A stretch of 64,000 nucleotides of DNA from Nemertoderma westbladi (taxonomy: Eukaryota > Animalia > Xenacoelomorpha), in NCBI GenBank assembly GCA_032718475.1, contig JAUCBJ010006937.1:1-64000 (forward strand), in the 5' to 3' direction. Positions 6,517 through 59,140 of the stretch are shown piece after piece. The notes under the pieces were generated by a model. The model made no database searches. It was given only the letters and a program-made list of their open reading frames with translations, and was not told the origin of the DNA. The translations under genes and the position numbers were made by a program. The first letter of the stretch is position 1; each line of letters begins with the position of its first letter.

Positions 6517-6527
6517 GTAAAATATTG
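6517..6527 (+). promoter_or_regulatory. Element 1 non-tRNA primer-binding site GTAAAATATTG
   Basis: Abuts the 5' LTR end, does not start with TGG, complementary to 6301-6311, resembles element 2 GTAGGAATATG. Confidence 0.7.
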
Positions 6528-6765
6528 GTTTCCAAACACTATCCCTAAGACAGTGTCCCCCCCCCCCCTCCCCCCTAAAATTAGATACATTAACATCTCG
6601 AACATCAAGTATGCTGTGGTAGTGGACTGATGGATTATTTCACTATAAGATAGCATTTGTAGTTTAACGTAAAAACTTTCTAAAATCCGACGCATTTTGA
6701 TTAAATTACAGTAATGTAATATGCCTATTCATATTGGTACATATAAAACCCATAGGTAATCTAAT

Positions 6766-6849
6766 GGCGCATTGGTCAGATGGATAAGGCGTTGGTTACA
6801 TTACAGATAGGTTACGAGTTCGAATCCCAGTCGGGAAATTTGCATTTTT
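6766..6849 (+). promoter_or_regulatory. tRNA-derived Pol III module (A box, B box, T5) inside element 1
   Basis: TGGTCAGATGG at 6773, GAGTTCGAATCC at 6816-6827, TTTTT at 6845-6849; cloverleaf stems do not pair. Confidence 0.75.
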
Positions 6850-30272: not shown

Positions 30273-30469
30273 CCGCTCCATGAAAACAGGATATTATCGT
30301 GCATAAAATATACGGTTTTCACCAATAATCAATCAAACTATAGAATACTTAGGGCGTACTTACATATTTACAATTAAGTTTCAAACAATACTTCCTTTCT
30401 ACGTAATGATTCGATACAAAATAATTACAAATTCAAACTTTACGTATTTAAGGCTTTACTAAGTAAGTA

Positions 30470-34859: not shown

Positions 34860-34889
34860 AATTAGGGTGTAGTTACATAATCATTACTA

Positions 34890-35516: not shown

Positions 35517-38500
35517 TTATTTACTAGTATTAGGTGGAGATTTGTAGTCTCCAGACTCGTTACGAGTCTCTTCAAGAAGTACGAGACGTTGAGTCGGTCT
35601 GTCTACTGTGCGACCGTCAATTGTTCGTACCGTCACAGTTCTTGTCACTCCATCCATAGATGGATGTGTGGCTAAAATGACACCTGTTATCCAGAAGCGT
35701 CTTTTTAGATTCACTTCTGCCAACAGCACGTGATCTCCCGGCTTTAATGCGTGGGTGTTATTATACCAGTTTGTTCTGGCAGAAATAGAGGGCAAATAAT
35801 GGTTTTGCCATATTTCCCAGAATTTGTTAGCCAGTAGTTGCGTGATTTTCCACGCTTTTCTCCCGTAACTATCGCTTTCTATTGGAATAGAAATAGGTGT
35901 CAAAGTCGTCGGTGCCTGCATTAGCAGGTGTGCCGGTGTCAAAGCAAACTGAGATTGTTTGTCATCGGGTACTAATACTATTGGTCTAGTATTTAGTATT
36001 GCCTCGATTTCAACAAACAATGTTGTCAGTTGGTCGTCTGTTAATATGTGGTTTACTGGAATGACCTTTGCCATTGCTGTCTTTATAGATCTAATCAGTC
36101 TCTCCCAGACTCCGCCTCTCCAAGGACTATCTGGAGGATTGAACTTCCAAACAATCTTGTGAGGTTGCAGTTCGTTCGAGATTTGATCATGATCTAATTT
36201 CTTAAAGGCTCTAGCAATCTCATTCCGAGCACCAACAAAGTTTGTCCCTTGGTCTGAGTACAAGCATTTTACTAGTCCGCGTCTAGCGATAAATCGCCGC
36301 AGTGCTAGTATAAACGCGTTGGTGGAAAGATCCATCACACGTTCAATGTGAACTGCCCTACTGGACATACATGTGAAAATCAGTCCCCAGCGTTTTACTA
36401 GTATACGTCCACGTTTAGTATGTATGGGACCAAAGCAATCAATTCCAGTCTCTGTAAAAGGTGGTCTGAATGCTTGAAGTCGTGCTTGTGGTAGTTCACT
36501 CATTTCTTGGGTACCTATTCTAGAATGTACCTTCTTACATATAATACACGTACGTGTCACTGAACTTAATGCTTTACTGGGTCTAATTAATACAAATCTA
36601 GTACGTAAGTAGGAAAGACAGTGGTGTCTTCCAGCGTGTTTCAGATGTAAATGTGCGTCCAGTATCATTGCACGTTGTAGTTCGTGATGTTGCGGTATTA
36701 TTATTGGGTACCTAAAGTTCGTGTTAAAGTCAATGTTTTGAAGCCGAGATTTATGACAAATTAAGCCATTATAAATTATCGGACTCCAACTCAGTATCGG
36801 TGACGACTTGATTGGTTGACCTTGACTTATAGATGTGAATTCGCGCGCGAAATATCGCAGTTGGTAATGGCGAATTAATTTAATCTCACACCTGTCAATC
36901 TCAGCCAATGTAAGTCGACGTGTAAAGTCACGTTTGCCTTTAACGTATTGTACAAAACGTACAATCCACGCTAATTTTCGGCAAGCGTTTGTCCAAGAGT
37001 CTGTTAAGTTTACAATACGGTCGACGTAAGTATTTGTGACGTCATCAGGTAAGTCAATGGAGAATTTGGAAGGTTTTGAATTACTAGAAGGGCCCACGGG
37101 TCCGCCGGTAAGTATTCCCTTGTTGACTGTTGATCCGTCCGGGTCTACAAGTAATTTGTCCTTCTTTGTCTTCTTACCTTGATTGTCGGTACTTTGTAGG
37201 TCGATCGTTAATGGTGGTTTGAACTCTATGGGGTCAGCAGGTTTTGGTAGACTTATTTTTCTGCCGACATTAATCCCAGGTCTCAACGTAGGTTGCAAGT
37301 TCGGTATGTCTCTTGAGCGCAAAGTAACACCTGTATTTACATTAGCGTAGGTACTACCCACATCTGTAATACATGAGGTTTCACTGTGCTTATGGTTGCT
37401 CAAGTGTGTCAAAATTGGTAGTTTGTCAATACAAGGCCGCTCCAATAGGGAAACTGCGGCTTTATTGTTAGTCAATACATTACTAGTGTCTAGTCGACTG
37501 TCTAGTAGTGTGTCTGGCGATACGTCTGGTAACGTATCTGGTTGTTTGTCACTAGAAGGCCGCTCCAATAGGGAAACTGCGGCTTTACTGTTTGTCAGTG
37601 CGTTACTAACGTCTGGTGGAACATTTTGTGATATGTCTGGCAAAATGTCTGGTTGGCTGTCTAGTAACGTGTCTGGTTGACCGTCTGGCGATATGTCTGG
37701 TTGACCGTCTGGCGATATGTCTGGTGTAGAAAGGCTCGCAAGTCTTCCTCTCTTGACCTTTGAAGTTATATCTTTCCATTTCGCCTTCGGTTTTTTCTTG
37801 AGTTTCGCCGCCGTCGTCTTTTTCTTTGTCTTCCCCTTTTTTGGTTTCTTGATTTCGGCGTCCTTGGGAATGGTGTTGGACTTGTTGTCGTATAACGGAG
37901 GCCAATCTTGTGTCGATTTCTGCAAGAACTGGGGTCCGTGTTGCCAAAACTCTTTGTTCTCCGGTTTACAGAATTCCTCAGGCATCATTCCTCGCGACGC
38001 AATATCAGCTGGGTTTTGTGGTCCGGGACAATGTCGCCAATCCCCTTTTATTGAACGGTCTAGAATTTCCGCGCGACGGTTAGCTACGAATGTCTTGAAT
38101 TCGAGAGTGTCGTTGTTTATGTAAAATAAAACTAACGTCGCGTCAGTCCAATAAAATATCTGTAAACTCGACTGTAGTTCTGTCTGTATGAGGTTCACGA
38201 TGGTGGTTGACAGGGTCGCGGCTTGTAGCTCGGCTCGTGGTGTTGTCATATACTTAGTAGGCATGGTCTTAGCCTTGGAAGTAATGAGCGAAACATCGAA
38301 CTCGTCCGATTCTACTTGTCTGCGCAAATACGCTGCCACACCAAAACCGTTGTCACTGGCGTCAGAAAAACAGTGTAGTTCCAAGTTGTCAGGAAATGTA
38401 CTCTGTAATGGAAAGTAAACCCTGGGTATGAAATAATCCTCTAGCGAAGACAATTCCGCCTCCCAGGTCTTCCATAAGTCCACTTGGTCTGATGAGATCG

Positions 38501-41500
38501 GCTCGTCCCATGTTAGTCCATCCTTCCATATACTGCGCATATAAATGCGAGCTTGCAGTATTACTGGACTGATGAATCCTAACGGATCGAACAATCGGCT
38601 CAACTTTGACAAGCATGATCTCTTGGTCAGTGTGTCTCCTTGACTGTCCAGTCTCACCTTCACTCGAAAGTTGTCTGTGTTTGGGTCCCAAAAGAGCCCC
38701 AACACCTTAGTCGTCGGTAGTGGTTCGAACTCTAGGTCTATGTCACCACCTCCACGCTCAGTAGTTCCGAATGAGTCAACTAATTCGGCACTGTTTGAGG
38801 CGAATTTGGTGAGGTTAAAACCTCCGCCCGCCAAGCAGTCCCGTAATTGATGTGCTACTGTTGTAGCACGTTCTACTGTGTCACAACTTTGTAAACCGTC
38901 ATCAACGTAAAAGTCACGTTCTACAATTCTAACTATCTCTGGGTCATACAGATGTTTCTGATCTCTAGCGGCTTGCTTCAAGGCGTACATCGTACAATTC
39001 GGGCTGTCTCTGGCACCGAAAACGCGAACTTGCATTTGGTAAGTCGCTGGTGGTAGACTTAAGTCCCCTTCCGGATACCAGAGAAACCGCAAACTGTCTC
39101 TGTCTCGCTCTAACGCTTTCACTTGGTGAAACATCGCTTCTACGTCGCAAGTAAAGGCTACTTGACGCTGACGGAAGCGCATAATCACCCCCATAAGATA
39201 GTTATTCATGTTCGGTCCATCCATCAATTCACTATTGAGGGACATTCCCTCAAACAGAGCCGCACAGTCATTGACTACGCGTACTTTATCTGGTTTGTCA
39301 GGATGTCTCACATAGTGATGTGGCAAGTAGTACGTCTGGTCTGTCACTCGCTCCGGGTTAGTCATTCGGATAGCGTATCCCTTCGTCAAATACGTCTCCA
39401 TCTGAGTGTTATACTGCAGATGGGCTTTCTCGTCCTTTAATAGACGTTGTCGGATTGAGTGTAGACGTCTTAAGGCCAGTGGGTAGTTATTTATAAGTTT
39501 AGGACTTTGGCTACGCCATAACATCCCCACCTCGTAATGTCCGTCCTCCGTCTGTCGGATAGTATCCTCCATGATCTTTAGAGATTGTTTCTCCTGTTCC
39601 GACATACAAGGGTCGTAGCTACCAGGTTCAGCTGTATCTTGTTCTAACCACCTGATAGTCTTCTCCGTTAATTCTTTGTCCAAGGCGGCTTGTTCCAACT
39701 GATGAATTTTCAACGCGTCATCGTCGATATCGATGGGCACTGTTGAAGTTATTGGGGTAGGTAGACTCGCAAGCCTATCATCTGTCGTCGATGGAATCTC
39801 TAGCTGACTCATCTTCCCCCCAATTTCTAAACTCACCTTGTGGGTTAGCTGCTCCTTGTGACTTATCATACTAGTTACACGTCTGTGATGTTTTGTCGAC
39901 TGTAGCGTAGTATGGTTCACGTCATGTGAAAAGGAATGAATTGAGTTTGTAGTCAATAAACTACATGTACTCTGTACGTCGTCTTCCTCGTCACTTACGT
40001 CCAGTGTGCGCACAGGCGCTCGAGTATACCACCCTATCGGCGTTCTGCAGGCGTATGCGTTTCCCGCTACAACTGCCGATGGTCTGGTTTCCCACACCTG
40101 GTGTAGGTTGAATTGGTCCGTCCCGATCAGCATTGCTACCGATCTATAATTGACAGGACATTCGGGTACACCAAGGTGTCTGAAATACTTACGGTCCTCC
40201 AGAGATTGTTCCGGCACTGGACCTAGTAGGTTACTAAAGTCCTTCGTGGCCGCAAAGGTTAGATCTCTAAAGGGCAACAAAGACCTCTCCCTCTCGCTGT
40301 GTTGCGATTTTGGAAGAAGAGAGTCTAAGTCCAACTTAACTCGTGTCACTGGTATTGCACGCTGTCCGTGCATACTACTTACTGTATAACTGACGTGCTT
40401 ACCTTGTCTAAGATCTGTTACGACGTCAGCTATCTTTTCATCTACGTAACTGTGAGATGAGGCTGAGTCTAGAATCGCGTAAATCCTCTTACTCCCTTTT
40501 GTGCCAGTAACTTTAATCGGGATTACACTGAATCCCTTCAGTTGGTCAGTGGTCAGGAGCGCGATTGACGGTTGTTCGTCTCCATTTGAATATTCGTCGT
40601 CTTCTGATTCTTCGTCCGACGATCCGGATTGTTCTGAAAAGCAATCCTCTATATGGGTCACGAAAGTCGGAGTCGTTTTCGATTCTCGTTTTCGGTAAGC
40701 CGCATCACATCTCGCTGCTGCTTCCGGGTGTTCCCTGGCGAAGCGTTTCGTCGGCGTGTGGCTGTCTGTGTGGAGCAGACCGTCGTGGTTGCGTCCACAG
40801 GATGGACAAGTGTCGGTATTTGGGCAATCCTTACGGACGTGTCCGTGTCGCGTACACCGCCAACAAGAGTCCAGTGGCCGTATCTGCAGCCGTCGTTCTT
40901 CTGAGTTCAACTCGCGAAATTGTCGACAACCTCGTAACTTGTGACCAATATACCGCTTACCTAAATGTTCGCAGTATTGGCAGCCGTTGAAGTCGGTGCT
41001 GAGTTGCTGTCTCGTCTGTTTCGTCCCAATGGGCGCAGATACTCTATTACCGTCTGAGAATTGTCGTGATTCCGTCGGTGTGGCGTAAGTGGCCGTCTTT
41101 GTGGATGTTGTCTGGGGTTTTTGTCGGTTGGAGGATGGCAGTGTGATCCCTTCTGCCACGATGTGCTGGTCGGTATAGTTAGATCGAGTTTCTACTACCG
41201 CCTCCCTGGATATTAAAAGGTACACATCTTCTAATTTTAGGAATCCTCCTCGCTCCTCTCGCTGATATTCGACCTTCCTCCACTCCCGACGAAGTCGATG
41301 GTGGAGTCGTCCTATTATCTTTAATAGGACTGTAGGCGTATTCCCGTAATCAAGTTGTCCAATTGATCTTAAGGTAGTGATAGCGTTCTTAATCTCGTCA
41401 GCCAGTTTTAGTAAGTCGACGGGTTTAGTGATAGCCCCTCCCTTACAGAGTTCTTCTATTACTGACCTGGCCATACTCACTGTACCTCCGTATATCGAAG

Positions 41501-44228
41501 TCAAACGATCGTACGCTAGTTCGAAAGCGTCCGGTACACCAACGAAAGTCTCCGCCAAACGTTTAGGTTCTCCTGACAACGTTTGGAGCAAGTAATTGAA
41601 CTTCTCTCGTGACGTAAAGGCGCACACGGCGATCTGGGATTCAATATAGTCTACGAAGGTATGCCAGTGTTTTGAGCTACCGGAGAACTTCGGTGGTTGT
41701 TGTACCGGCAATCCCTGTCTGGCTGCGAATTTCGCTATCTCCTCGGCAACGTTCAGAGTTTCGCGTCCTTGGTTGGTAGTCTGGTTGATGTTCTCCCTTC
41801 TAGGCGCTTTTCCCTGATACGATGTGGGGTTTGAAGGTACCGGTCTTTGTGGTCCCTTCGGGTGTCTATTGTGTTCGAATTCGGAATTTCTCGAACTGTC
41901 GGTGTAACCTTCCTCCAGACGTTCCTCAATCCGGGCCAACTTGTTGACAATGTCGGCGAACTGTTGCGCACCGATCGCGCCCGCTGGTGGTAACGCCTTC
42001 TGTGTCGGTGTATTCTGTGGAGGATTATCTGCAAAGGAGTTGTCTGAACGCTCGCGTTTATATTCATCGGCCGCCCCCGTTCTAAATACCTCGCGTTTTG
42101 GGTAATCCGATTCGCTCGAAGTACTACTATCATCTGGATATGGTGGTCGACGTGCTCGCGTCCGTTGCATCGTTCGAATTCTAACGGCTCGTTTCGGAAC
42201 ATCCTCCACTGTTCTCCGTTGTTCGGTAGGCTCACAAGTCTTCCTCGAAGTCGTAGATTGTGACGTAAACTGATTGAATGGTCGCGTCTCCACTGTTCTC
42301 CGTTGTTCGGTAGGCTCACAAGTCTTCCTCGAAGTCGTAGATTGCGATGTAAACTGATTGAATGGTCGCGTCTCCACTGTTCTCCGTTGTTCGGTAGGCT
42401 CACAAGTCTTCCTCGAAGTCGTAGATTGTGACGTAAACTGATTGAATGGTGGTCGGACGACCGCGTTTGAATCCAAAGGCCTCGTAGGCCGAAATGTCAT
42501 TGGGTAATCGTAGTGCGTAACGGGTTTTGGCGTCAAAGGTGGACTCACCTGTTTAGTCGTCAGTAGCGCAGGTCCGGTCAATAAACTACTACGATCTGTA
42601 ATCGGTGGGTTCCTTACCTTGACTCTCGGAATAGGCGACGACGTTGCTCTTGGCGGTATAAACTCGTTCGGAATAACAAACCTGTGTTCCGTCGCACCAT
42701 GGATAGGAGAAATATCACTACTACCCGCAATCGAAACAGGTTCCTTAGTCGTAACCGGTGCAAACATATGAGTTACCTGTGGGAATCGTTGACACACGTC
42801 TTTTACTAATTGCCGTTCCCGTCCGGGTGCTCCTACGCTTCCTTCCTTCTTCCGTTCCTGAATTTGGCGATGTCTTACCTCTAACTGGTCCAAATCATGT
42901 CCGTCACGAGATCTCATCGATCGATCGCGGGCCTTTTGATCCAGATCTTCCTCAGCGTTCGCTAATTCTCTCGCCTTCTTCTCAAGTTCGAAATGAAGTT
43001 TAGCTGTCTTCTCTCGTTGTTCCGTTTGTCGTTGTTGCGCCTCAAATTCTGCTTGTCGTATGGCGGATTGAGCTTTTATTTGCCGTGTTTTCATTTCGGC
43101 CCGTGCTTCCGAAACTAACCTGTCTCGTTCTAATTCCGCCGCTGCCGCTGCCGCTTGTCGCTCTGACTCGGCCGCTGCCGCTGCCGCTTGTCGCTCTGAC
43201 TCGGCCGCTGCCGCTGCCGCTTGTCGGGCAATGTCTACCTCTAACCTTTCTACTTCAGCTGCTTCTAATTCAGCTTGTTCCTGTAGATGAGAGATTCTCG
43301 CTATATTCGCAACGCGTAGCTTCTCTTCCTCTACTGCTGCCTGCATCACTAGAAGTTGAGCTTGTTCCTCCATTTCTCGTCGTTGTCGGCAGAATTCTTG
43401 CTGTTGTCGAGCAACTTCTGACGTGACTATACTTCCCTCGCAGATTTCGCTACGAATACTCACCAGCGATTGATTTAGTATTCCCGGTGCCGATTCGATT
43501 TGTGCGAGTGAAGTTTCCCTCGTAGCCTCCGGCACGGTCTCCCAATCCCCGACGTCTTCGCCGCACATGCGCAAGTGATCCGTCAGGTGTTTCAATTGTC
43601 CATCCAGTCGGTACAGTTCCTGTTCTTCCTCGGGTTGTAATAATTCGTCCGAAACTGACTCACCTAACAACTGGTCCGCTTGTTCCTGTTGTATCTGTCT
43701 AATCGTCGACTTAAACTGAATCAGTTTCTCTCTAGTGATCATTAGTTTCTCTAGGATTCTAAGTTGAGTATCCATGTCCTGTCTCTGTCTAGCTAGATCT
43801 TGTAAGCCAACTAAATTATCTACGGACTTATATACTTTACTCTGTACTCTAACCTGGAGGGTGTAGAACTCGAATCGAGACATCGGAGCGGTCAACCCGT
43901 CTAATATGCGTTGGCCTTCTCCAATACTCCTGGTTATATGCGCCATGTAACCTCCGACGCTTCTAACCACACTTTCTGTGCTTCCTGCTGAACTTACCAA
44001 TTCCGTTTCCCTATATCTAGGTTGCGGAACAGTTAGAAAGTCCTCGGTCCTGCCGTCGCCTCGTACTACGGCATCCGGTACTCCCGTTGGATGTACTGGT
44101 GACGCACACGGTGTAGGTTCGGTAGGCTCGCGAGTCTTCCCCTGTTGTTCTCCCGCTGCTGACTTATCCGCGTCACATGAGTCATAGTCGGTTTGTGTGT
44201 TCTTCGTATAGTCTTGTTTGTCACTCAT
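35517..44228 (-). CDS. Element 2 Gag-Pol polyprotein (Gag, PR, RT, RNase H, IN)
   Basis: DUF1759-like PPKFSG...EKFNYLLQTL; three Cys/His knuckles; ILDSAS protease; FYVDD RT; HCFSDAS RNase H; HHCC and GIDCFGP/SDQGTNF/GVWERL integrase; BEL domain order. Confidence 0.97.
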   Translation of the reverse strand: MSDKQDYTKNTQTDYDSCDADKSAAGEQQGKTREPTEPTPCASPVHPTGVPDAVVRGDGRTEDFLTVPQPRYRETELVSSAGSTESVVRSVGGYMAHITRSIGEGQRILDGLTAPMSRFEFYTLQVRVQSKVYKSVDNLVGLQDLARQRQDMDTQLRILEKLMITREKLIQFKSTIRQIQQEQADQLLGESVSDELLQPEEEQELYRLDGQLKHLTDHLRMCGEDVGDWETVPEATRETSLAQIESAPGILNQSLVSIRSEICEGSIVTSEVARQQQEFCRQRREMEEQAQLLVMQAAVEEEKLRVANIARISHLQEQAELEAAEVERLEVDIARQAAAAAAESERQAAAAAAESERQAAAAAAELERDRLVSEARAEMKTRQIKAQSAIRQAEFEAQQRQTEQREKTAKLHFELEKKARELANAEEDLDQKARDRSMRSRDGHDLDQLEVRHRQIQERKKEGSVGAPGRERQLVKDVCQRFPQVTHMFAPVTTKEPVSIAGSSDISPIHGATEHRFVIPNEFIPPRATSSPIPRVKVRNPPITDRSSLLTGPALLTTKQVSPPLTPKPVTHYDYPMTFRPTRPLDSNAVVRPPFNQFTSQSTTSRKTCEPTEQRRTVETRPFNQFTSQSTTSRKTCEPTEQRRTVETRPFNQFTSQSTTSRKTCEPTEQRRTVEDVPKRAVRIRTMQRTRARRPPYPDDSSTSSESDYPKREVFRTGAADEYKRERSDNSFADNPPQNTPTQKALPPAGAIGAQQFADIVNKLARIEERLEEGYTDSSRNSEFEHNRHPKGPQRPVPSNPTSYQGKAPRRENINQTTNQGRETLNVAEEIAKFAARQGLPVQQPPKFSGSSKHWHTFVDYIESQIAVCAFTSREKFNYLLQTLSGEPKRLAETFVGVPDAFELAYDRLTSIYGGTVSMARSVIEELCKGGAITKPVDLLKLADEIKNAITTLRSIGQLDYGNTPTVLLKIIGRLHHRLRREWRKVEYQREERGGFLKLEDVYLLISREAVVETRSNYTDQHIVAEGITLPSSNRQKPQTTSTKTATYATPTESRQFSDGNRVSAPIGTKQTRQQLSTDFNGCQYCEHLGKRYIGHKLRGCRQFRELNSEERRLQIRPLDSCWRCTRHGHVRKDCPNTDTCPSCGRNHDGLLHTDSHTPTKRFAREHPEAAARCDAAYRKRESKTTPTFVTHIEDCFSEQSGSSDEESEDDEYSNGDEQPSIALLTTDQLKGFSVIPIKVTGTKGSKRIYAILDSASSHSYVDEKIADVVTDLRQGKHVSYTVSSMHGQRAIPVTRVKLDLDSLLPKSQHSERERSLLPFRDLTFAATKDFSNLLGPVPEQSLEDRKYFRHLGVPECPVNYRSVAMLIGTDQFNLHQVWETRPSAVVAGNAYACRTPIGWYTRAPVRTLDVSDEEDDVQSTCSLLTTNSIHSFSHDVNHTTLQSTKHHRRVTSMISHKEQLTHKVSLEIGGKMSQLEIPSTTDDRLASLPTPITSTVPIDIDDDALKIHQLEQAALDKELTEKTIRWLEQDTAEPGSYDPCMSEQEKQSLKIMEDTIRQTEDGHYEVGMLWRSQSPKLINNYPLALRRLHSIRQRLLKDEKAHLQYNTQMETYLTKGYAIRMTNPERVTDQTYYLPHHYVRHPDKPDKVRVVNDCAALFEGMSLNSELMDGPNMNNYLMGVIMRFRQRQVAFTCDVEAMFHQVKALERDRDSLRFLWYPEGDLSLPPATYQMQVRVFGARDSPNCTMYALKQAARDQKHLYDPEIVRIVERDFYVDDGLQSCDTVERATTVAHQLRDCLAGGGFNLTKFASNSAELVDSFGTTERGGGDIDLEFEPLPTTKVLGLFWDPNTDNFRVKVRLDSQGDTLTKRSCLSKLSRLFDPLGFISPVILQARIYMRSIWKDGLTWDEPISSDQVDLWKTWEAELSSLEDYFIPRVYFPLQSTFPDNLELHCFSDASDNGFGVAAYLRRQVESDEFDVSLITSKAKTMPTKYMTTPRAELQAATLSTTIVNLIQTELQSSLQIFYWTDATLVLFYINNDTLEFKTFVANRRAEILDRSIKGDWRHCPGPQNPADIASRGMMPEEFCKPENKEFWQHGPQFLQKSTQDWPPLYDNKSNTIPKDAEIKKPKKGKTKKKTTAAKLKKKPKAKWKDITSKVKRGRLASLSTPDISPDGQPDISPDGQPDTLLDSQPDILPDISQNVPPDVSNALTNSKAAVSLLERPSSDKQPDTLPDVSPDTLLDSRLDTSNVLTNNKAAVSLLERPCIDKLPILTHLSNHKHSETSCITDVGSTYANVNTGVTLRSRDIPNLQPTLRPGINVGRKISLPKPADPIEFKPPLTIDLQSTDNQGKKTKKDKLLVDPDGSTVNKGILTGGPVGPSSNSKPSKFSIDLPDDVTNTYVDRIVNLTDSWTNACRKLAWIVRFVQYVKGKRDFTRRLTLAEIDRCEIKLIRHYQLRYFAREFTSISQGQPIKSSPILSWSPIIYNGLICHKSRLQNIDFNTNFRYPIIIPQHHELQRAMILDAHLHLKHAGRHHCLSYLRTRFVLIRPSKALSSVTRTCIICKKVHSRIGTQEMSELPQARLQAFRPPFTETGIDCFGPIHTKRGRILVKRWGLIFTCMSSRAVHIERVMDLSTNAFILALRRFIARRGLVKCLYSDQGTNFVGARNEIARAFKKLDHDQISNELQPHKIVWKFNPPDSPWRGGVWERLIRSIKTAMAKVIPVNHILTDDQLTTLFVEIEAILNTRPIVLVPDDKQSQFALTPAHLLMQAPTTLTPISIPIESDSYGRKAWKITQLLANKFWEIWQNHYLPSISARTNWYNNTHALKPGDHVLLAEVNLKRRFWITGVILATHPSMDGVTRTVTVRTIDGRTVDRPTQRLVLLEETRNESGDYKSPPNTSK
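42203..42450. repeat. 84-bp in-frame tandem repeat x3 in gag
   Basis: Encodes PFNQFTSQSTTSRKTCEPTEQRRTVE three times; each unit carries the 17-bp motif. Confidence 0.95.
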
Positions 44229-44313
44229 TTCGGTAGTTGTAAGTCAAGTAAAGTGAGTGTCAAAGTATCGAGTTTTACCGTATTTATATCTAAACGGTAC
44301 TAATTACAGTCTT

Positions 44314-44447: not shown

Positions 44448-45027
44448 TCGGATAACGATATGCGTTATCAAAAGGTAAATTAAATACAATAATACGGACT
44501 AATTCAGCAATGAACAAAGAAATCGTACGGAATGCATAAATACTTGAGACAGTGGAACCCACAATAATTTTAACTAATACGGTAATGCCTAACTTATTTA
44601 TGCAACTTTTCGAACTCACCCACTCCAATAATTCTCCAGAAAAAACAGATTCCCAGATACAAACCGGACGTGAACCTTTCCGTTTTTAACGTTGCGGACG
44701 AAACGCGATTTTCCCAACCAAAGTTGTTGAGTTATCTATCTCCCAAACTTGCTAAACACGGTCTTGCTCCCGTTACAGTCTAGAAATGAGTTCTGAATCC
44801 TGAAAAACAAAAGAGTTAGGTTTTACTTTACGAAAATTTTGTACCGGTACAATATGGTATTTAAACCCTTTTAAACACCGGTATTCAATTCCAAAAATAT
44901 TTTACACGCGGTTCAAATCAAATTTTATTTCAAAAAATTAGCACTTAGCTAATCAAATACAAACTTTTACCTCAAAATACAAAATTTTCAAATAACTTTA
45001 GTCCTACCGAACCGTAGTTCAGTAAAA

Positions 45028-45038
45028 CATATTCCTAC
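45028..45038 (-). promoter_or_regulatory. Element 2 non-tRNA primer-binding site GTAGGAATATG
   Basis: Abuts the 5' LTR; exact complement CATATTCCTAC at 29410-29400 (CATATTCCTAT at 46099-46089). Confidence 0.72.
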
Positions 45039-46961
45039 TAAATTGGAGAGATACGCCTATTCCTACTATCGGAAGAGACGGTAACAATACCTGCAATATC
45101 CTACTGTAAAGTTTGTAAATCAAATCATAAATCCGACCTTCTCACCAAAACAGTAAACCCTAAGTAAGCGAATATATTGCAGTATCGATCTCTTTTAACC
45201 GGTGAGGCAGAAAACAGTCTACGAGCAGACAAACTTCGATAAAACAAATCCCGCGCAGCGAATCCTAAAATCAGGCTGACTCACTGACGGACTAAGGGGC
45301 TCGTATACTTTGCCGCGGTGTGATTTATATGGTTGGGCAAAGGGACGCTAGCTAGGTATAGAGCAGATTTGGAGATGTCTAACTAGCGGGCAAAGTGCAG
45401 TAAGGACGAAAGTTAATTTTATATATTTCGAGGTGTAAATAATTTCTAACGCGCGTGTGTTAATTCTGAACGGTCAAAGCAGTTTTGCTCCTTCACATAT
45501 ATAATTACTGGGTACGGTGTGCATTTACGAATATTCTAATTTTATAACTTGTAGGTCCAATACTCACGAATGATAAGGTTCCTTCCCCTCTTGCGTATTT
45601 CCAGGACTCAAATTCAGGCATAAGGTTAATACTACGCCCAGAATTCGGCAATTTTAGGTACCAGGTCCCTGATACTAAGAAGAGATGTGTTAGTTTACTA
45701 CTGTAGGCGTACGGGTACTAATAGCTATCCTGGCTCCTATCTAGAATTTTAGTCACCCAGGTAGTCCAGGTAACTTCCTATTAGGGCGTTGGCGGGGACA
45801 CGGTAGATGTTAGTATATCCCTGATAGCCTCAATTTATTTGCGCCTAGCGTAAACTGCCCTACCGCCTGAACGGTACAATCCCAATTCAGGTGAGAACAC
45901 AGCAACCCCCCTAGCCTACAAGTTCTGATGTAACGGACACCGTTGTACGGCAAATAGTCGCACACACACCTGTACTTAGCAAGAGTTAAGCGTACAGTTT
46001 GCTGCACCCTAACCAATGTGTATGCCTTGTACCGGTGTGCCTACGTCCTATCTGCGTACTAGTATCTGCTCTCTCTCCCTCTCCCCCCATAGGAATATGA
46101 AGGTCTACTGCGGTTTTTTCCTGAATCAAGACAGTACAGTCCCTATGATGTAATTTTGGGCTCACAGCGTGTCACTACGTCTACCTTTGATCTTTTGGTC
46201 TTACACTTAGGTAGCAAGGATCGAACGCTGTCTAACCTTTCAGGCGATGGGCGAATAACACTAGATGGTATTGCGGGTTGTCTCTCGTCTACATTCCCGT
46301 GATGTTCCCGTTCATTGCTGCGGCCCGATCTCTAGCCGGCCATCCTGTCCCTGAGTTTGTTCACCGTAGTGAAACCATAGTAAAACAGATAGAAAAGGGC
46401 TGAGATGTGACTAGTATTTCTGACTTTTATTACAAAAGATATAATAACTATTATACAATAAACAATGTAATCTGAAATAAGACAGAAAGTGAATGATGGA
46501 AATTGAAGATTGATTGAGAGTGAATAATGAACGAAATCGCACCTTTATATACTAAATTTGTGCTGCAATCAATCGAGAAAATTCTCGATTGTTCTATGGG
46601 TTCTAACAAGGTTTTAAAGATAGCTTATTGGTCCAGCTAATATATAACTTGCACGACATTGGTTACAATCAAATAACTACAGCCTTATTGGTACAGACAA
46701 ATGCAATTAATTTGTAGCGGTTAATTTAAATGAGTTGAAATTCTGCACAAAAAATAATTCGCACTTACTAGGATTCGAACTCGATACCTACTACACTTAT
46801 AATTTCCAACGCTCTACCAACTGAGCTACTGAACCACTTGACCGATAGATACATAATAGATAGAACCAATACTAATGAGAACTCAAAGCAATCTTTACAA
46901 AGTTAATTCGAATAAAATAAAATTTTGAAAATCCACGGCATTTAGGGAATATAATTCTATA
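45039..46961 (-). repeat. Element 2 5' LTR
   Basis: Direct repeat of 28350-30272. Confidence 0.95.
46544..46837 (-). promoter_or_regulatory. Element 2 U3 cassette: Pol III A/B boxes, T6, three CCAAT boxes, TATA
   Basis: A/B module 46748-46837; plus-strand ATTGG at 46627, 46658, 46687; sense TATATAAA at 46551-46544. Confidence 0.78.
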
Positions 46962-46966
46962 CATAT

Positions 46967-48139
46967 TAAAAACACCTACACTGGAACCGCTGCGTGTAGA
47001 TGGCGAATTAGTTCCCCCTTCTCGCACTCGAGCCGACGTGATTCGAGAAAAGGTCCATGGAATAAACGTATCGCGTCGCCCTCTGCACTACCCCTTTTAT
47101 GGGATTAAAGACCATCCTCGATTCGTGATGCTCAAGCAACACTACGTAATACAACCTGAGCACCCCGGACAGGATGTGCGATTTCTACTGCTCGTAAATC
47201 CTTTTGGACCTCGTGGAATTAGAAGCTTTACATCATCAGCATTTAGACTCTCTAGTAAAACTAAACTCATTTAAAAAACCCTACAATATCGTGACAATAG
47301 AAGCCAGGCAACGTCCACCCTTCAATTTAGAGGCATTTATGGACTACCACCATTTGGTACATTGGAATTTGGATGTAACCTTTCTGGAGGATGACCTGAA
47401 ATATATCGAACCCAATGTAAACTCCCATGAGATGCCCAGTTATGAATCCATAAGGATAGCGTGTGGAGTACCTGGTTTATTAGATGCTGTATACGGCTTA
47501 CAGTTACGGTGTTATGATATATGACAATGAAGGCTCAGTGCCAGACCATGAACTCGGTTCGACTCGATTAATACACGTACGCGGTCTCACTGGAGCTACG
47601 CATGTTTTTATGCGCACTTGACGCGGTACCGAATGCTCTTTTCCCGCCATGACTGCTTATCAATGCCATGCGAGACATCAACAATTTGTTAAAGCGGAGG
47701 CGTATGTCAATGATATACACCGACACCCGGCTATGGGAATCAACGCTGCTTTGTTACCGCAACCGGTGTTAGATATTCTGTTGGATGAATCCGTCTACAA
47801 ACTCAGTTCAGCCATATATCGGGACTTAACGGATGATTTTCCTATTGTCCATGATATACCATATCTCTTCGTCAACACTCAAGTTATCCTTCCTTGGCGC
47901 AATCTTGTGGCTTCTTCAGAGTTATGTATCGGCGCAACGCTAACAATACGTATAACCGAGTTGATCGTACTTCCTCCGGCCATATCGCGTTCCAGGAGTA
48001 CGGTTGGAACTTCAAGGAGACCGACTGCGAGACGTATTCTCAAGTTTATGGTGACGCATATTCGCCCTATAATTTTTAGGGACCACTCACCTCTCCCGGT
48101 GCCGTGTATAGCTTTATGAGTGTCCCCTTACGCCCCTCA
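46967..48139 (+). pseudogene. Element 1 ORF2, part 2 (exonuclease ExoI/ExoII region)
   Basis: GVMIYDNEGS (YDNEG at 47520-47534)..LIHVRGLTGATHVF and LLPQPVLDILLDESVYKLSSAIYRDLTDDF..FVNTQ align with element 2 ORF2. Confidence 0.82.
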
Positions 48140-48369: not shown

Positions 48370-51300
48370 AGAAATAACTGCCAGATTTATTGAGTTTCAA
48401 TTAAGTGTTGCTTTAGTGCCTTCTTGAACATTTGGGCAGAGCCTTTGAACCGTTGCAAACTGTCAGTATGTATAGTCAGTTGTATAGTAAGTGTGAGCGA
48501 GCAAAATTAGTACGTGGTGATGGTAATCTATAATGGAATTGCTGTCTAGTTTTCCGTCCGTGAATACTGATATTAGTTACCATTTTTGTCTTAAAATTTT
48601 TGGGTACAAAACACTAGTTCATGCGGTAGTTTTATATCGTTTTCAAACTGAGGAATTTGTACATTGCATTAATTTTAAGAAATTTATTATTTGAAAAAAT
48701 TGATTGTGTTGGGTGTCGGTATGGTTTTAATTCAACGATGCGGACAGCTTTCTTTTGTAGCCGGACTAGAGGATTAAGAGTGCTGTCATTAATATTACAA
48801 TTACCCCAAACAGTTAAAGCATACGATATATAAGGTTCTACCAATGTATTATATAGGAGCTTCCTAATCTGTATTGGAACGAAATGCTTGATCTTATTTA
48901 TTACACCTACGTTTTTTGATACTTTTATGCGAATATTTTGTATATGTAAATGCCATGAGAAATTTGATTGGAGGTGAATACCAAGAAATTTAATATTTTC
49001 AGTATCGTTTATTGTTCGCCCATTGATTTTGACCCCTGTGTTTTTTGGATTATATGGCTTCATTGAGAACACCATATATTTTGTTTTATCGAGATTTAAA
49101 GATAGTTTATTTAAGCAAATCCATTGATATATTTTATGTATTTCTTTGTTCATTGTTGATATCAGATCATGTACGTTTTCGCCTGAAATAAATAAGTTTG
49201 TATCATCAGCGAAGAGTATGAAATTTACGATTTTTGAAGAATTTGAGATGTCATTTATGTAAATTAAAAATAAAATTGGGCCAAGGACAGACCCCTGCGG
49301 AACTCCACATATCACATCAAGTGTATCTGAAATTGTTCCATTTAAATCAACGTATTGGGTTCGATTGTGGAGATAACTGGAAAACCATGCTAATGGGGTT
49401 CCGCATACACCGTAATGCTCAAGTTTTTTTTAATAGGATTGAATGATTAACGGTATCAAAGGCTTTGCTAAAATCCAAGAAAACACCAAGTGTAAGATGT
49501 TTATTTTCAATATCATCTGACAAATTAGATTGCAGGAGAGTGAGAGCTGTTATAGTTGATTTTTCCGATTGAAATCCGAACTGATTTTCATAAATAATAG
49601 AGTTTTTTATCATGAAGTTTACGAATTGTCGAGAAACAGCCTTTTCTAGAATTTTCGAAAAAAATGGGAGTATACTTATAGGACGGTAATTACCAAATTG
49701 ATCGGCGTTACTATGTTTGAAAATAGGTACAATTCTTGCCACTTTCATTAGATCTGGGAATATTCCCAGAGATAATGATTGATTAAGGATGTGTGTCAAT
49801 GGATGGGCTATGTAGAGAAAGTTTTGCCGAGCGATTTGAGAATCAACACCGTCCGAAGTCAAGGCTTTTGAATTGGTTATTGATGAGGCAATATCATATA
49901 CATCTTTAGTACTTAGTGGTGAAAAGTATAGTGAGGATGCGGTTTGGTTACCTAGGGTATCATATATGGAACCATTAGTATTAGGAATATTTTTCGCTAA
50001 GTTTGGACCTACATTACGATAAAAGTTATTGAATCCATTTGCAATCGCTGTGTTATTCCTAATTGACGAATTGTTTACTGTAAATGTATCAGGATAGTTT
50101 TGAGGCGAGCATGAGGCTCGGGGATTTATAAGTGTTTTTATTATTTTCCAGGTTTTCATCGTATTATTTCTATGAATATTAAATGATTTCTCAAAATAAG
50201 CTTTTTTTGCATTCCTAATTATTTTAGTAAGTTGGTTTTTATAAGCCGTATATTCGATTTTTTTGCTTAGAGATCTGCTATTAATGTATTTTGCATATAG
50301 TGCATGCTTACGTTTGATACATTTATAAATACTTTCAGATAGCCAAGGTTTATCGCTATTTATTATCTTTATTTTTTTAGTGGGAAAACATTTGTTATAT
50401 AGCTTCTGATATATTTCAATAAACGTATTGTAAGCAATATTGGGGTCACTTTCTTGCGTAACTTCTTCCCAGCCTCCATTGTTAAAAGTTTGTTTAAGGA
50501 TCTCCACAAATTTTTTACTGTTTGTTTCTGATCTATCCGTAACTAAGATGTAAGATGGTTTACTATGTTTACTGGGAATTGTTATTTCAGAATTGACAAA
50601 TATGGGTAGATGGTCAGATAAACTGGCTACAATTATTCCAGATTTACGAATGTTTGTAATATCGTTTGTTATGATATTATCAATACAGGTTGCAGTAGTT
50701 TCTGTTATACGAGTTGGTTTGGTAATAACAGGATAAAAAAACTGTTCTGATAGTAGTTCAAAAAAATCAGTTGGTTGTTTATGTATATTAACTCCTAACA
50801 TATCTATGTTAAAGTCGATGTTATCTATCTAAGTTTATTTTCTGTATTAATCTGTTCTAAAATGTGCTTTAATTTCCTTAGAAAGCCAATTACATCTTTT
50901 GCAGGTGGACGATATATACATCCTATGATAATATTTTTTGCATTTTCTCGATCCCACTCGGCAAAAACTGACTCCAAATCAGGCTCATCTTTCTCGAGAT
51001 CATGGCGGGGTTTGCAATTCAAGTTATTGCTTAAATAGAGACTACATCCCCCGCCACGTTGATTGGCACGAGGTTTGCTATGGTAAATTTTGTATCCATC
51101 CAGCTGATAGTCATTAAGGTTGTCCTTTTTCAACCAAGTTTCAGTTAGAGCAATTGCGGAAAAGGGTTTCTCTATTATTTGTAATAAATCGTATAGATTA
51201 TGAAAATTCTTCGGAACACTCCTTATATTCGTATGAAAAAGAGACAATCCATTTTCTTGCTGATTTTTTAAGTTAAAATCTGTTGACACCAAATTGTTAT

Positions 51301-51718
51301 AGTAACGACATTGAATTTTAGTGTAAATGTTATTTAGTATATTGCTATCTGGATTATTGTCTCTGTCAAATTCAAAAATGGTGTCACCTGCATTCAAATC
51401 TGTCAGTCTAACTGTATTAGAGGTTAAAAGGTCAATATCGATTATCGAAGGCAATCGATAGTCGTATATTGTTAAAAGAAACTCATCTTCGTCTATAATA
51501 TTTGTGAAAGGCAGTGCATTAAAAATACAATGTGGGCAAAACCAAATGGACTGAGATAAGAGTTGTTTAAATTCTGAAAATTTAAGAGATGGGATACAAC
51601 GGTAGTGAACAAATTGCTTACAAGCAGCACATTTCAATTTAGAGATATTGGAGCTTTTTATTAATTTAGTGCAATAGTGGCAAGTGCTATTTTGAATCAT
51701 ATAAAATTTAAGATTCAA
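48370..51718 (-). pseudogene. LINE ORF2 (PHD finger, APE endonuclease, RT), frameshifted
   Basis: CHYC..CAAC..HYRC..WFCPHC; ALTETWL, YRPP, SDHLPI; DFSKAFDTV, GVPQGSVLGP, FADDT; split over three ORFs. Confidence 0.92.
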
Positions 51719-52044
51719 TAAAATTAAGACAAAATAGGAGAAAACAATGCAGTAGATTAAAACTAAAAAAACAAACTAACTAATACGCTACAAGTAAACG
51801 CTACAAAGCCTAGTATATATGTAGGGTAAGATAGTTAGTGTAAAAGCTATAGGGAGTAAACAGTCCAAGCAGTCAGTAAGTCCTTTCCTAAACACTAATT
51901 ATGGCTAGACTGTGTCGTATATTTTGGCGAAATGGCCAATTGTAGTTTTTTGTAAATAAAACTAAATTTCCCTACACTCATTGCAACCTTGTATGGTGTA
52001 AACACAATAATATTACATTCCAATGTCATTTAATCTATGTGACC

Positions 52045-53073
52045 TCAGAAACCATGAAATACTATATCACCTTCCCCAGCTGGATCGCTGCTGGTTGATT
52101 CTATTCGGTGTGTCAACTCGGTTCCGTTAGCAGCACTTTTATTGTGGTTCTTGTCTCTAGAAGGAGGTGGGTGGGTGGTCAGTGCTGCGCCTGCCGCTGT
52201 CGGTCCAGTGCGATTGTAGCGTTTCCGGTTCCGCTCGACCTTCTCCTCCATAGTGAAATGCTTAACGTGTTTAACGTCGTCGTCGCGTTCAATTTCGATT
52301 TTGTTACCCTTTTTATCTATAGCAAAGATGCGCCCATCTCGCGACCAACCAATCCCATTTACACGAATACGTTTTAGTAAATCCCGTCTACGGGGCGTTA
52401 AGCACTCGGTTATAAAGCTTGGCGAAGCGCGAAGGCGGTGGTCCTCTTTGAAAATTCTCGCCCGTGTTCTATATCGGACTAACTTGACAATAATCGGTGG
52501 ATTATATTTACGATTACCGATGGTATCTATGGGGGCTTTGCTAGGAAGGCGATGACATCTATCCAGATCCCTTTCATCGATATTGAGATTTAGAGATTCC
52601 TTGAAGAATTGAAGCACAACATTACAGGTATCGTCTTCGGATTTCTCACCTGGAAGTTGCTCCAATCCGTGGATCAGGACACAATTCCGACGAGAATATT
52701 GCTCGGCATTATCATGACGTACTGATAAATTATTGGCCAAATCAGTGAGATTACTTTTAATTTCTTCGATTGAATCGCGTATTTTCTCTACCTCGAAATT
52801 AACAAGAGACTTGATTGTATCAATTAAGGACGATCGTTGTTTAGCACGAAGTTGCTGTTCCGAACTGGATCCACTGCCTGTCACAGTATGACTGGAGATC
52901 TCTAATTCTGACCGGTCGTCTAATGCTTTCGATACTATTTCAGCGATTCTATCGTCCAATCCATCGATGTTGTCCTGTAGACCACCAAGACGCTCCATTT
53001 GTTCCGAGATGGATTTGTTAAATACGCCAGACGATGTCGTACCTTTCTTCCCTTGTTTAAGTTGTTTGGGCAT
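52045..53073 (-). CDS. LINE ORF1 protein (coiled coil plus RRM-like)
   Basis: EQYSRRNCVLIHGL, DRCHRL, PPIIVKL, FITECLT and WSRDGRIF motifs typical of this ORF1 class. Confidence 0.88.
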   Translation of the reverse strand: MPKQLKQGKKGTTSSGVFNKSISEQMERLGGLQDNIDGLDDRIAEIVSKALDDRSELEISSHTVTGSGSSSEQQLRAKQRSSLIDTIKSLVNFEVEKIRDSIEEIKSNLTDLANNLSVRHDNAEQYSRRNCVLIHGLEQLPGEKSEDDTCNVVLQFFKESLNLNIDERDLDRCHRLPSKAPIDTIGNRKYNPPIIVKLVRYRTRARIFKEDHRLRASPSFITECLTPRRRDLLKRIRVNGIGWSRDGRIFAIDKKGNKIEIERDDDVKHVKHFTMEEKVERNRKRYNRTGPTAAGAALTTHPPPSRDKNHNKSAANGTELTHRIESTSSDPAGEGDIVFHGF

Positions 53074-53387
53074 GATTGAATCCGTAGGCTAAGGTCCTGA
53101 GGATTGTGTTCACGTGCTTTTTTTAAAATAATTATTGAGTGAATTGCTATTTAATGTTGGTAGATCGATCATAATAGATGGACCTGATAAATCCCAGTTG
53201 TTAAGTTTTATTGTTAATTATAATGATACATTGCGGCCGTTAGTCGCCTCCTTTACGGCACAGTCAGATTACTGCTAGACTACGAAGCTACCGGTACCAT
53301 GTACCGCTACACTACTGTTCCGCAAATACTGTAAATACTGCAAATACAAATACTAAGTTACTCCCTTTACTATTTGCCATGTGTGGA

Positions 53388-54912
53388 CATTAACCAACCA
53401 GACCCCATCGGTGGTGTGTTTCCTTCCTGTCAGACACTATTCCCTTCCTGTCAGACACTATTCGATCATTGGATTCATCATTGGCGATGTACCTCATATT
53501 CGAAAACCAAGCGTTATCGGGATGGCTTGCGGACATATGTAGCCTTATGTTGAGAGTGCACTCGCCAACTCGCCAACTCGCCAAGCTCAATGAATTCGGA
53601 AAATTCTTGAACTTTGAATGCTTTCGACGCTTCCGGACCCCTTTCGCCAACATCGACAGCCAGTTCCGCGTAAAGTCGTTGTTTCAGCGGGAGTTACGCC
53701 ACGGATGAGCTAGCCAGCAGTGGCTTTGCCATATTCCGGGACATGTGCGTTTCAAACCTGCACCCGTCGGTAATCGAGAGACCCATTCACCCGGATTCTC
53801 GGTTGGCCAAATACAGACTGATATCGTGGACGCCTCATGCCAAACAGAAGAGCCAATTTATTTGGAAGCGACCTCAGTAACCACTACTGTTATGTCAACA
53901 CCCGATAACGAGTCCGCCCTAATAGACTGGTATCGCGGAACTGTGCGGCTCACCGTCCGAGGTTTCCGCTACGCGTCGTTCCAAAGACATATCCGTTGTA
54001 CGCACTGCGGTCTTCATACACACAACACTCCCATCCAACCTGGAGTTCTCTGCGACAGTAATATTAAACTCTATTGCCCATACTGTCATATTAGTGGTGA
54101 TCACATTTTCTTCTCGTGCAGTCTTTGCTACACAATGTGAGCGTTGTCAATTTAAAGGACACAGTAGTTCAAACTGCCCTTTTGGCCACAACATAGAAGT
54201 AGAAGACGAGACCAGTGTTGCGCGATACATCCGATCATGGGAAGGATGCGCAGACCTCAATGCGTATGCTATGTCTCGATACGCCGCAGCAAGGGCTCAT
54301 CTCGGAGTGTACGTGGTTACCCCCTTTATTTGCGCCACTGACGTCCGATGTGCTTGGTTACCCAGCTACGAACTCCTCAACCGTGTAGCTTCCTGCACCA
54401 ACACCCGTTTCATCCGATGTTTTCTTCGAGAAATACATCCAGAACATGTGACGTCTTACGACATAATCAAATTCATTAAAGACTCCCCCTTCTATGGTCC
54501 CCACTTCCTGGAGAGACATCCCAATCTGCTTCCACAGCACTGGGCCTTCCACGAACACGTTCATCATGAAGGACCGGTCTCACACGCTGTGCCTCCGAGA
54601 ATTTTCCTCGGCCAACAGTCTCTGTTTGATACCACAACCCAAACTGTCCCCTCCGGGCCAGTGCAAACCGCCGTGCGGAAGCGCTTAGCCGCTCCCCTGG
54701 AACTGGGATTCCGTCGACCGGCTGTCAACTCACACGTCACGAGACCGGCTGAGTTCCTGTCCTTACCCAGCACCTCCACCGGAACATATACTGATCATCC
54801 GAGTTCTCCAACGCCTGATGCGGTAGACATACACTCAGGCCCCGATGGGACGATTTCGAGCGACGACCTCACACTGCCTGCGCCCCTGACACCCACGAAA
54901 AGGAGGAAATGA
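53388..54912 (+). pseudogene. Element 1 ORF2, part 3 (zinc knuckles and C-terminus)
   Basis: CTHCGLHTH, CPYCHISGDHIFFSC, CERCQFKGHSSSNC, RAHLG..V.P and FLREIHPE match element 2 ORF2 (RAHLGFWAVNP, YLLQIHPD). Confidence 0.85.
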
Positions 54913-55720: not shown

Positions 55721-56707
55721 TTTTGCTGCCAATGCTAACTGTATACAGAAATCTTATATTTTCATCGGATTATTATTCGGTTTCAGTGCATATAATATTT
55801 GTGCTTCGTATGTATTGAATAGCCCATAAAGTTGTTTATATTGTTGCCTAACAACAGTTGTGGTATTACTGAACTCTCACTGGTAACTACCGAAACTGGT
55901 ATTCTTGCGTCTTATTGGCTGTTCTATTTCGTTGAGCATTGTTGTATTCATATATAACTGTTGTCTGCCTCGATACGATAGGCTTAACTTGATATTATTT
56001 CAAGTACTTTACATTGATTTTATAGCACTGCAAGCCACGTTAGTTACAGTGGCCCGCAATATTTTACCTAATCGCTTGTACTAATCACTAATCATTTGCA
56101 ATTTACAACTTATGTTTGCATTTACTATTATTGCATTACTTGTTGATGAATATATTGGACCAGAGATCAAACCAACTCGATTTCCACACGGTGAGTGTAT
56201 TTGTGCCCTGTCAGTAATAAGATTTGGTTCCAACACGGTGAGTGTATTTGTGCCCTGTCAGTAATAAGATTTGGTTCATTTAATGCGAATGTGTGAGTCC
56301 ATAGTATTGTTATATTATTCCCAACTAGTAACTATTATTTACCAGCAATACAAGTGATACGAGTAAATCATGCGCTTATCACGCACTAGGCCAATGTAGT
56401 GTCCTACCTGTGATATATGTAAGTCATACGTACATTTACTAGCCAACAACACAATATAACGGAATGGTTTACACGTACTATCGCACCCCCCTTGAAGCAG
56501 TTTGTAAGTGCCGAGGCATTATACACATACACTAACTAATTCTAGATCTTGTTAAGATATATATATTAGATAATATATTTATACCCCCACACTTGCGTGA
56601 GTGTTCCTGCTATGCGGCAGGTATCCCGAGGCTTTGATAACACTCATAAGAACTACATAACGGCTCGCTAGGCATTTTCAGGTAAGCCTCCCATAAACGC
56701 CTCGACA
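55721..56707 (+). repeat. Element 1 3' LTR (987 bp)
   Basis: Preceded by GGAACGG (55714-55720); contains ATTGG and TATATAA (55951) and an internal tandem duplication of about 47 bp (about 56185-56277); followed by TSD CCCGA. Confidence 0.88.
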
Positions 56708-58890: not shown

Positions 58891-59140
58891 ATTGGGGGTA
58901 ATAGTCCCCTTAATACATATAGAGCCCATAAAGGGGGCAACCAGAACCATTCCATTTTAAACAAACTTAACATTTTGAATTTTCCTCCCCCATAACATGA
59001 ACTTGTTGTGATAAGTTAGATGAAGTTCACATTAGTAAGACCAAGTTCATGTTAGATTTTTTTATATTTTTCTTTTAGATTTTTTTATTTATTTTTTATT
59101 ATTTTCTTCTTTAAATTTGGCTTTTTTGTTGCTTACTTAA

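Follow-up and report, generated by a model that had tools for sequence, protein, structure and literature searches.

Two long terminal repeat (LTR) retrotransposons, nested one within the other in a 64,000-nucleotide stretch of the Nemertoderma westbladi genome (contig JAUCBJ010006937.1, positions 1 to 64,000; hereafter ‘the window’), probably use RNA of their own, and not a tRNA, to prime the synthesis of their minus-strand DNA. In both of them the 11 nt that abut the 5′ LTR as the primer-binding site (PBS) are complementary to a stretch of the element's own LTR, the anti-PBS. This pairing is real and under selection, and self-priming is most likely what it serves; the pairing, its alignment with the LTR end and a pair of partner variants are observed, and from these we infer the priming. 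The original prediction envisaged an independent self-priming lineage within BEL/Pao. Self-priming stands as the best reading, on the strength of the partner variant and of ten PBSs from relatives, but the trait is not confined to the two elements: self-pairing appears to be widespread among the closest BEL/Pao relatives sampled, in most of them across a predicted splice junction. Ty3/gypsy elements are known to self-prime and Ty1/copia elements are predicted to do so, and the BEL/Pao case is new to the literature searched.

Two nested BEL/Pao elements

Element 1 lies on the forward strand (5965-56707) and its ORFs are broken. The 5′ LTR (5965-6516; 552 bp, TT...CA ends) and the 3′ LTR (55721-56707; with an insertion of ~435 bp at about 56149-56584) differ at 23 aligned sites, six of which are CpG sites, and the element is flanked by the 5-bp target-site duplication CCCGA (5960-5964 and 56708-56712). 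Remains of Gag-Pol, disrupted by stops, frameshifts and insertions, extend over 14948-22417 and match Pfam PF05380, PF03564 and PF17921. A second ORF (ORF2) survives as an exonuclease-like piece with a YDNEG motif (47508-48133, forward strand) and as further pieces at 27960-28163 and 53997-54477, split by a non-LTR-type element and by element 2, which sits inside it.

Element 2 lies on the reverse strand (46961-28350; 18.6 kb). Its 5′ LTR (45039-46961; TA...TA ends) and 3′ LTR (28350-30272) are both 1923 bp long and differ at a single position; the 5-bp target-site duplication ATATG occupies 46962-46966 and 28345-28349, and a short purine tract, GGAGCGG (30273-30279), adjoins the 3′ LTR. ORF1 (35517-44243), unbroken over 2908 aa from stop to stop, encodes Gag-Pol in the order DUF1759, CCHC, protease motif, RT with YVDD, Pao A17/RNase H, integrase and DUF5641 (Pfam PF05380, E=9e-42; PF18701; PF03564), and ORF2 (31134-34880; 1248 aa) comprises a DEDD-exonuclease-like segment followed by zinc knuckles. 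A 23-nt motif recurs five times in the ORFs and non-coding sequence of element 2 (37748, 35233, 34088, 31113 and 30588, reverse strand) with 0-4 mismatches and no strong fold, and is possibly a protein-binding or packaging signal.

By their Pol domains both elements are BEL/Pao, an assignment by descent of Pol only; in other respects they depart from the ICTV description of the family. With the Belpaoviridae they share the Gag-PR-RT-RH-IN order, Pao-specific Pfam domains, LTRs and a purine tract. The ICTV account, however, gives LTRs of 0.2-1.2 kb, genomes of 4.2-10 kb and an 18-nt PBS for tRNA-Arg or tRNA-Gly (PMC8742986), whereas element 2 measures 18.6 kb, has 1.9-kb LTRs and lacks a tRNA site, and its ORF2 is not env-like. 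Direct LTRs and 5-bp duplications are present in both elements, and the ends are not TG...CA. The RT/RNase H regions of the two are ~42% identical (~2.2 changes per site), which is no closer than their best database matches among the 120 homologues listed (at most 44% identity), all 120 of which contain PF05380. In the tree they join on a long branch with a support of 98, a grouping that may possibly be long-branch attraction.

The PBS of element 2, GTAGGAATATG, occupies 45028-45038 (reverse strand), and its complement lies at 46089-46099 in the 5′ LTR, where it ends in T, and at 29400-29410 in the 3′ LTR, where it ends in C. The PBS of element 1, GTAAAATATTG (6517-6527, forward strand), is matched at 6301-6311 and by an identical copy at 56057-56067. 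Motifs and coordinates were all as first described on recheck, and the lack of a TGG start was confirmed at both LTR ends; with TGG missing at these ends, neither element carries the 18-nt signature of a tRNA-Arg- or tRNA-Gly-type PBS. The duplex stops in both elements exactly at the LTR boundary (offset 0), where minus-strand synthesis must start, and its energy is -13.7 kcal/mol for the C form and -12.4 kcal/mol for the T form of element 2, and -8.6 kcal/mol for element 1. Between the LTRs of the two elements, first described as otherwise unalignable, blastn finds no match at E<=1e-5.

Chance complementarity in AT-rich DNA is the simplest rival to be weighed. Eleven nucleotides are short, and matches of at least 11 nt occur at 5 of 1000 offsets in element 2 and at 2 of 1000 in element 1, own PBS included. 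The probability of about 5e-4 per element put forward initially, with a higher value for AT-rich sequence, was recomputed as ~5e-4 to 1e-3 each: an exact 11-mer is expected in the own LTR with a probability of 5.8-6.9e-4 in element 2 and of 4.9e-4 to 1.1e-3 in element 1 (Markov orders 0-2), and the joint probability for the two elements is below about 1e-6.

The longer pairings proposed for element 2 fared worse. Neither GGAGAG with CTCTCC (p=0.07) nor the upstream extension CAGTAG with TTACTG (p=0.24) rises above shuffled sequences, and both extensions are absent from element 1 (p=0.40 and 0.71, shuffles). TTACTG sits within a hairpin that adjoins the PBS (45027-45002, reverse strand; 11 bp, C-UACG-G loop, z=-5.2), is equalled in stability by 0 of 200 shuffles and uses the same bases as the claimed extension; a strong hairpin 3′ of the PBS is found in element 2 only. 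Nor is a Tf1-like R-U5 stem conserved (p 0.07-0.96 across 9 of 9 elements, with p=0.07 in element 2), the R-U5 pairing being absent from element 1 and from seven relatives. Variation near the PBS is reduced (p 0.007-0.07), which is suggestive only.

The LTRs of element 2 differ solely in the base that closes the anti-PBS, T at 46089 against C at 29400. This CpG transition hits what would be the 3′ base of the primer, a coincidence of ~1 in 600 by estimate, and could be the mark of an error at the strand-transfer point; position 46089 is not among the variants listed (40 of 238) over 44600-47100 in the public runs.

Partner variants and related loci

Nine public sequencing runs, none recorded as RNA, were considered, six of which cover part of the window. 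Four, in the form of contigs, were compared over 44600-47100, where the depth sums are rough and 40 of 238 variants are listed. Element 2 belongs to a high-copy family in these data, so that its copies offer natural variation on both sides of the duplex. At the third base of the anti-PBS (46097) U>C makes up 6.5%, 6.5% and 94% of the summed depth in runs X1, X3 and X4. At the partner position 45030 of the PBS, A>G, predicted beforehand from the anti-PBS variant, was found in all four runs compared over this part at 26, 24, 31 and 23%, and since X1 and X2 are one sample the partner variant rests on three samples. Over the surrounding 161 nt (44965-45125) it is the only variant of at least 2% in all four runs; two other sites exceed 2%, in X2 only. 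Duplex energies are -15.6 with both changes, -13.7 with the PBS change alone and -9.5 with the anti-PBS change alone.

The shares of the two variants disagree. In X1 and X3 the PBS carries G at 23-31% against 6.5% C in the anti-PBS, a mismatch that is tolerated through G-U pairing, and in X4 the relation is reversed (94% C in the anti-PBS against 31% G in the PBS), which implies C-A mismatches if the LTR sequence of X4 derives from full-length RNA. The variants at 46097 and 45030 match at the population level, as contigs cannot link both sites on one molecule, and A>G in a duplex could alternatively be a product of editing. Plus-strand copying of a primer would rewrite the PBS, and this would explain the joint change of both sites. 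Loose ends in X1, X2 and X3 at an inner 9-nt copy of the PBS start (45058-45066, reverse strand), which precedes the start of the true PBS by 28 nt, point to copies that miss these 28 nt, a pattern expected from mispriming or slippage.

A metagenome search returned 79 BEL/Pao loci at 36-43% identity, and a search of viral contigs returned no relatives. A direct repeat was found in 33 of the 79 loci, ten of which were dropped as assembly overlaps, as duplicates or with an LTR that could not be placed (L015, L030, L032, L040, L054, L055, L056, L064, L068 and L071). None of the 12 loci with a placed 5′ LTR end has a PBS that starts with TGG. Contiguous matches between PBS and LTR reach 9 nt at most in these loci, and seven of the 12 pair over 11-13 nt with a predicted GT..AG splice junction of their own LTR; one more does so with one G-U pair (control: 4 of 1176 leader windows). 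A scan of 11 further loci that was blind to the LTR ends found one GT-starting site in eight, against 3 stray matches in 6839 positions. In total, 16 of the 23 testable loci, scattered across the tree, possess a GT-starting PBS that pairs with a predicted splice junction of their own LTR. They do so with ten different 11-mers, and the search by homology proposed originally has thus extended own-LTR pairing to ten other PBS sequences. No pairing was seen in the other 7 of 23, several of which have uncertain ends. L083, the one locus with defined ends among the 11 from a genome collection, starts with GT and has no pairing of at least 10 nt; these 11 (L080-L090) are BEL/Pao contigs inside bacterial and archaeal MAGs, evidently through host contamination. 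All 12 paired PBS types, both window elements included, start with GT, and the window elements therefore resemble a contiguous version of this system. With this many relatives pairing, and with the predicted partner variant found, chance complementarity is effectively refuted and retains only a minimal probability.

A different objection is that the pairing is structural or regulatory, masking the PBS or guiding packaging or splicing, and that the real primer is a host RNA or a tRNA fragment. Priming is deduced from the pairing, a shared host feature could impose the GT start on all paired PBSs, and the ICTV describes BEL/Pao replication as tRNA-primed and poorly understood (PMC8742986). We nevertheless consider a host primer improbable: twelve different PBS sequences are each matched by their own LTR, foreign combinations of PBS and LTR match in 6 of 182 cases, each of them involving loci whose PBSs are identical or almost so, and in both window elements the duplex ends exactly where the LTR does. 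Stretches resembling the A-box and B-box of tRNA genes were noticed by eye in U3 of element 2 (~46835-46765, reverse strand) and in the leader of element 1 (6765-6836, forward strand). A self-encoded tRNA-like primer, which the Cer elements of C. elegans reportedly employ, was rejected on the grounds that ARAGORN and Rfam were negative for these stretches and that neither ends in the anti-PBS; they are possibly SINE remnants or insulators.

Transcripts and routes to a primer

In run X4 a GT..AG intron of 1437 nt (44800-46236, reverse strand) is removed from element 2 and with it the anti-PBS, U5 and the PBS. The joint (44798-46236) has a depth of 250 in X4 and of 0 in X1, X3 and X5, and it includes 27 nt on the upstream side, so the RNA begins upstream of the anti-PBS; this lends indirect support to the earlier view that the primer is not merely the first 11 nt of the RNA. 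Devoid of primer and PBS, the spliced RNA would serve only as mRNA, and its upstream ATGs are cut from 11 to 5. Transcription of this RNA has to begin upstream of 46236, in agreement with the TATA box at 46551: TATATAAA together with the Inr-like TCACTCT 25 nt downstream (46520-46551, reverse strand) constitutes the predicted main promoter. AATAAA occurs first upstream of the anti-PBS (46426-46431, reverse strand; 29742 in the 3′ LTR) and a second time 250 nt downstream of it (45834-45839, reverse strand; 29150 in the 3′ LTR), and the second copy is the predicted, presumably used, end signal of the genomic RNA.

X4 is recorded as ‘DNA?’. Its changes on the plus strand are T>C at 102 places against A>G at 7, and two contigs carry 89 and 58 changes (45210-45908 and 45910-46277), which suggest that X4 is RNA with A-to-I editing. 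Read on the sense strand of the element, the changes in X4 overall are mostly A>G and resemble ADAR hyper-editing of LTR RNA. Depth in X4 is uneven across the LTR and was set aside as a guide to RNA ends. The donor at 46236 (reverse strand) is joined in X4 also to sequence absent from the window, which suggests chimeric transcripts driven by the LTR. In element 1 a strong donor lies at 6491-6492, 25 nt before the LTR end, and acceptors lie in the leader at 7653-7789, which could give a PBS-skipping mRNA too.

As to how a primer is made, we favour, at about an even chance, a Tf1-like route in which an RNase H cut frees a long 5′ RNA fragment. Unspliced element 2 RNA would start near 46523, and its 5′ copy of the anti-PBS would fold onto the PBS; the RNase H of the RT would then cut past the terminal C, as in Tf1, leaving a 5′ fragment of ~435 nt as the primer. 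From there the RT would copy U5 back to 46088 and jump to the copy in the 3′ LTR, a step that requires this copy to extend beyond the anti-PBS to the second AATAAA, whereas RNA spliced across 46236-44800 would be Gag-Pol mRNA only. Every step past the pairing is a proposal drawn from contigs. We prefer this route since no other has been demonstrated, since the geometry of the relative L046 fits, and since most relatives lack ORF2; in L046 TATATAA lies 36 nt before the splice donor, so that the 5′ end of the RNA would act as primer in that element, as it does in Tf1. Counting against it are the AATAAA upstream of the anti-PBS, which would need read-through, the R-U5 stem that is not conserved, and the weak duplex of element 1 (-8.6 kcal/mol).

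Alternatively, the RNA that pairs with the PBS could be the genomic RNA's own copy in the 3′ LTR, or else a short transcript of an LTR supplied in trans, with its tail trimmed to the duplex by an exonuclease, possibly ORF2. Such 3′-end trimming is a real if minor possibility. The contiguous anti-PBS lets both LTR copies pair, and a poly(A)-like hexamer follows the primer end at 11-135 nt in 6 of 7 relatives and at 250 nt in element 2. ORF2 itself, judged by its motifs, would be DEDD-exonuclease-like: although only ~29% identical, the ORF2s of both elements keep YDNEG (ExoI D-x-E) unchanged as well as the ExoII aspartate, and a four-sequence profile has EXD2 as its best solved-structure match (E=0.013 with A1, 0.37 with A2), followed by zinc-knuckle proteins. 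Two proteins, P0124 and P0126, share its layout, with D-T-E at ExoI, and the ExoIII position reads YLAIE in element 2 and YLRGD or YLRSD in the homologues. The exhaustive homologue search gave 4 matches, 2 of them to zinc knuckles only; short-word searches found nothing, the ORF2 sequence had 0 matches against the PDB, and Pfam gave no exonuclease match. What weighs against trimming is that the structure models (pLDDT 34 and 30) are unusable and leave the fold unconfirmed, and that none of 90 related loci, all 16 pairing ones included, has an ORF2 homologue, which means that pairing in general needs no ORF2; the LTR elements of rotifers that carry a DEDDy ORF, moreover, are described with no mention of a PBS or of self-priming in the available text (PMC5408684).

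Somewhat less probable again is a wider scheme: a broad BEL/Pao branch would self-prime mostly via splicing of an LTR intron, the window lineage would be intronless at that place and would use its own DEDD exonuclease with zinc knuckles to trim the RNA 3′ end to the PBS duplex, and a splice that skips the PBS would separate mRNA from genome. If true, element-encoded exonucleolytic primer maturation would be a priming route unlike that of Tf1.

The exact Tf1 mode, finally, appears doubtful. It posits a second start at the CA of the anti-PBS, so that the primer would be the first 10-11 nt of the genomic RNA and the upstream promoter would make mRNA only. Both anti-PBS 11-mers open with CA, TCATATT of element 2 presumably fits the initiator pattern, and the geometry of L046 would suit this mode as well. 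Alternative starts in Tf2 separate replicating from non-replicating RNA (PMC5341516). No TATA box, however, lies 25-35 nt upstream of either anti-PBS. A loose end in X2 also speaks against it: a contig there links sense 46117-46089 with antisense U5, the join falling on the inner 9-nt copy of the PBS start, and seems to include 18 nt that precede the 11-mer. A long primer joined to its cDNA would look like this, but so would a library fold-back at this microhomology; the loose end may be a library chimera and gives a weak hint.

Relation to known self-priming elements

The cut that we favour has its precedent in Tf1, whose self-priming mechanism is reviewed in PMC7175516; Tf1, Tj1 and Tf2 are covered by PMC7175516, PMC4600332 and PMC5341516. 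Tf1, Tf2 and Tj1, and the Ty3/gypsy elements of the Tf1/sushi/Tcn1 group, likewise have an 11-nt non-tRNA PBS complementary to their own LTR RNA, and a cut is predicted to release their primer (PMC7175516 and PMC4600332). The window elements would work like the Tf1/sushi group and are no members of it, Pol being BEL/Pao and not that of a Ty3/gypsy chromovirus. Unlike in Tf1, roughly 100 and 450 nt separate the TATA-like boxes of the two elements from the anti-PBS, a further 205 and 1050 nt follow up to the end of the LTR, there is no conserved R-U5 stem, and the relatives build the anti-PBS by predicted splicing.

Self-priming is also predicted for Tcn1 and for the TAR elements of Ty1/copia in the sections of PMC6317226 available to us. 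The plant TAR elements (Houba/Osr-1) display a complement of at least 10 nt between 5′ LTR and PBS, which is the same type of evidence as ours; they belong to another superfamily and another host kingdom, and those sections mention neither a splice-junction form nor a DEDD ORF. Juno and Vesta of bdelloid rotifers resemble element 2 in a different respect, having an additional ORF after pol (DEDDy ORF3) with RNase D-like exonuclease motifs, in which DEED has replaced DEDD; the ExoIII position of element 2 is an E. They are unrelated LTR lineages for which the accessible text reports no link to priming (PMC5408684), and the ORF2 of the window elements adds three zinc knuckles. BEL/Pao self-priming does not feature in the available parts of PMC3601003 and PMC6934838, and neither PBS nor primer occurs in PMC554778, PMC3118150 and PMC2774666; no report of BEL/Pao self-priming or of splice-junction primers was found in the literature, with subscription journals, Repbase records and supplements outside the scope of the search.

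To the known cases the window adds a partner variant that was predicted and then confirmed, a splice that skips the PBS, and an exonuclease-like ORF2 common to both elements. If our reading is right, none of the three LTR superfamilies would lack self-priming, animals would harbour it beyond the sushi group, and much of BEL/Pao would be independent of tRNA. Silencing by tRNA fragments aimed at the PBS would presumably not reach such elements, and LTR finders that require TG...CA ends and a tRNA site would miss them. Element 2 represents a young, high-copy family with natural partner variants, and the mechanism is therefore testable by RNA-end mapping alone.

The window holds further features besides the two elements. 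Arrays of ~160 bp repeats in direct and inverted blocks (10210-17335 and 59137-60313) interrupt the gag of element 1, and its ORF2 is the insertion site of a broken element, apparently of non-LTR type, that bears an RT and a PHD/C1-like ORF (48632-53088, reverse strand). At 1525-2481 the window encodes a rhodopsin-family GPCR in a single exon (PF00001, E=9e-22).
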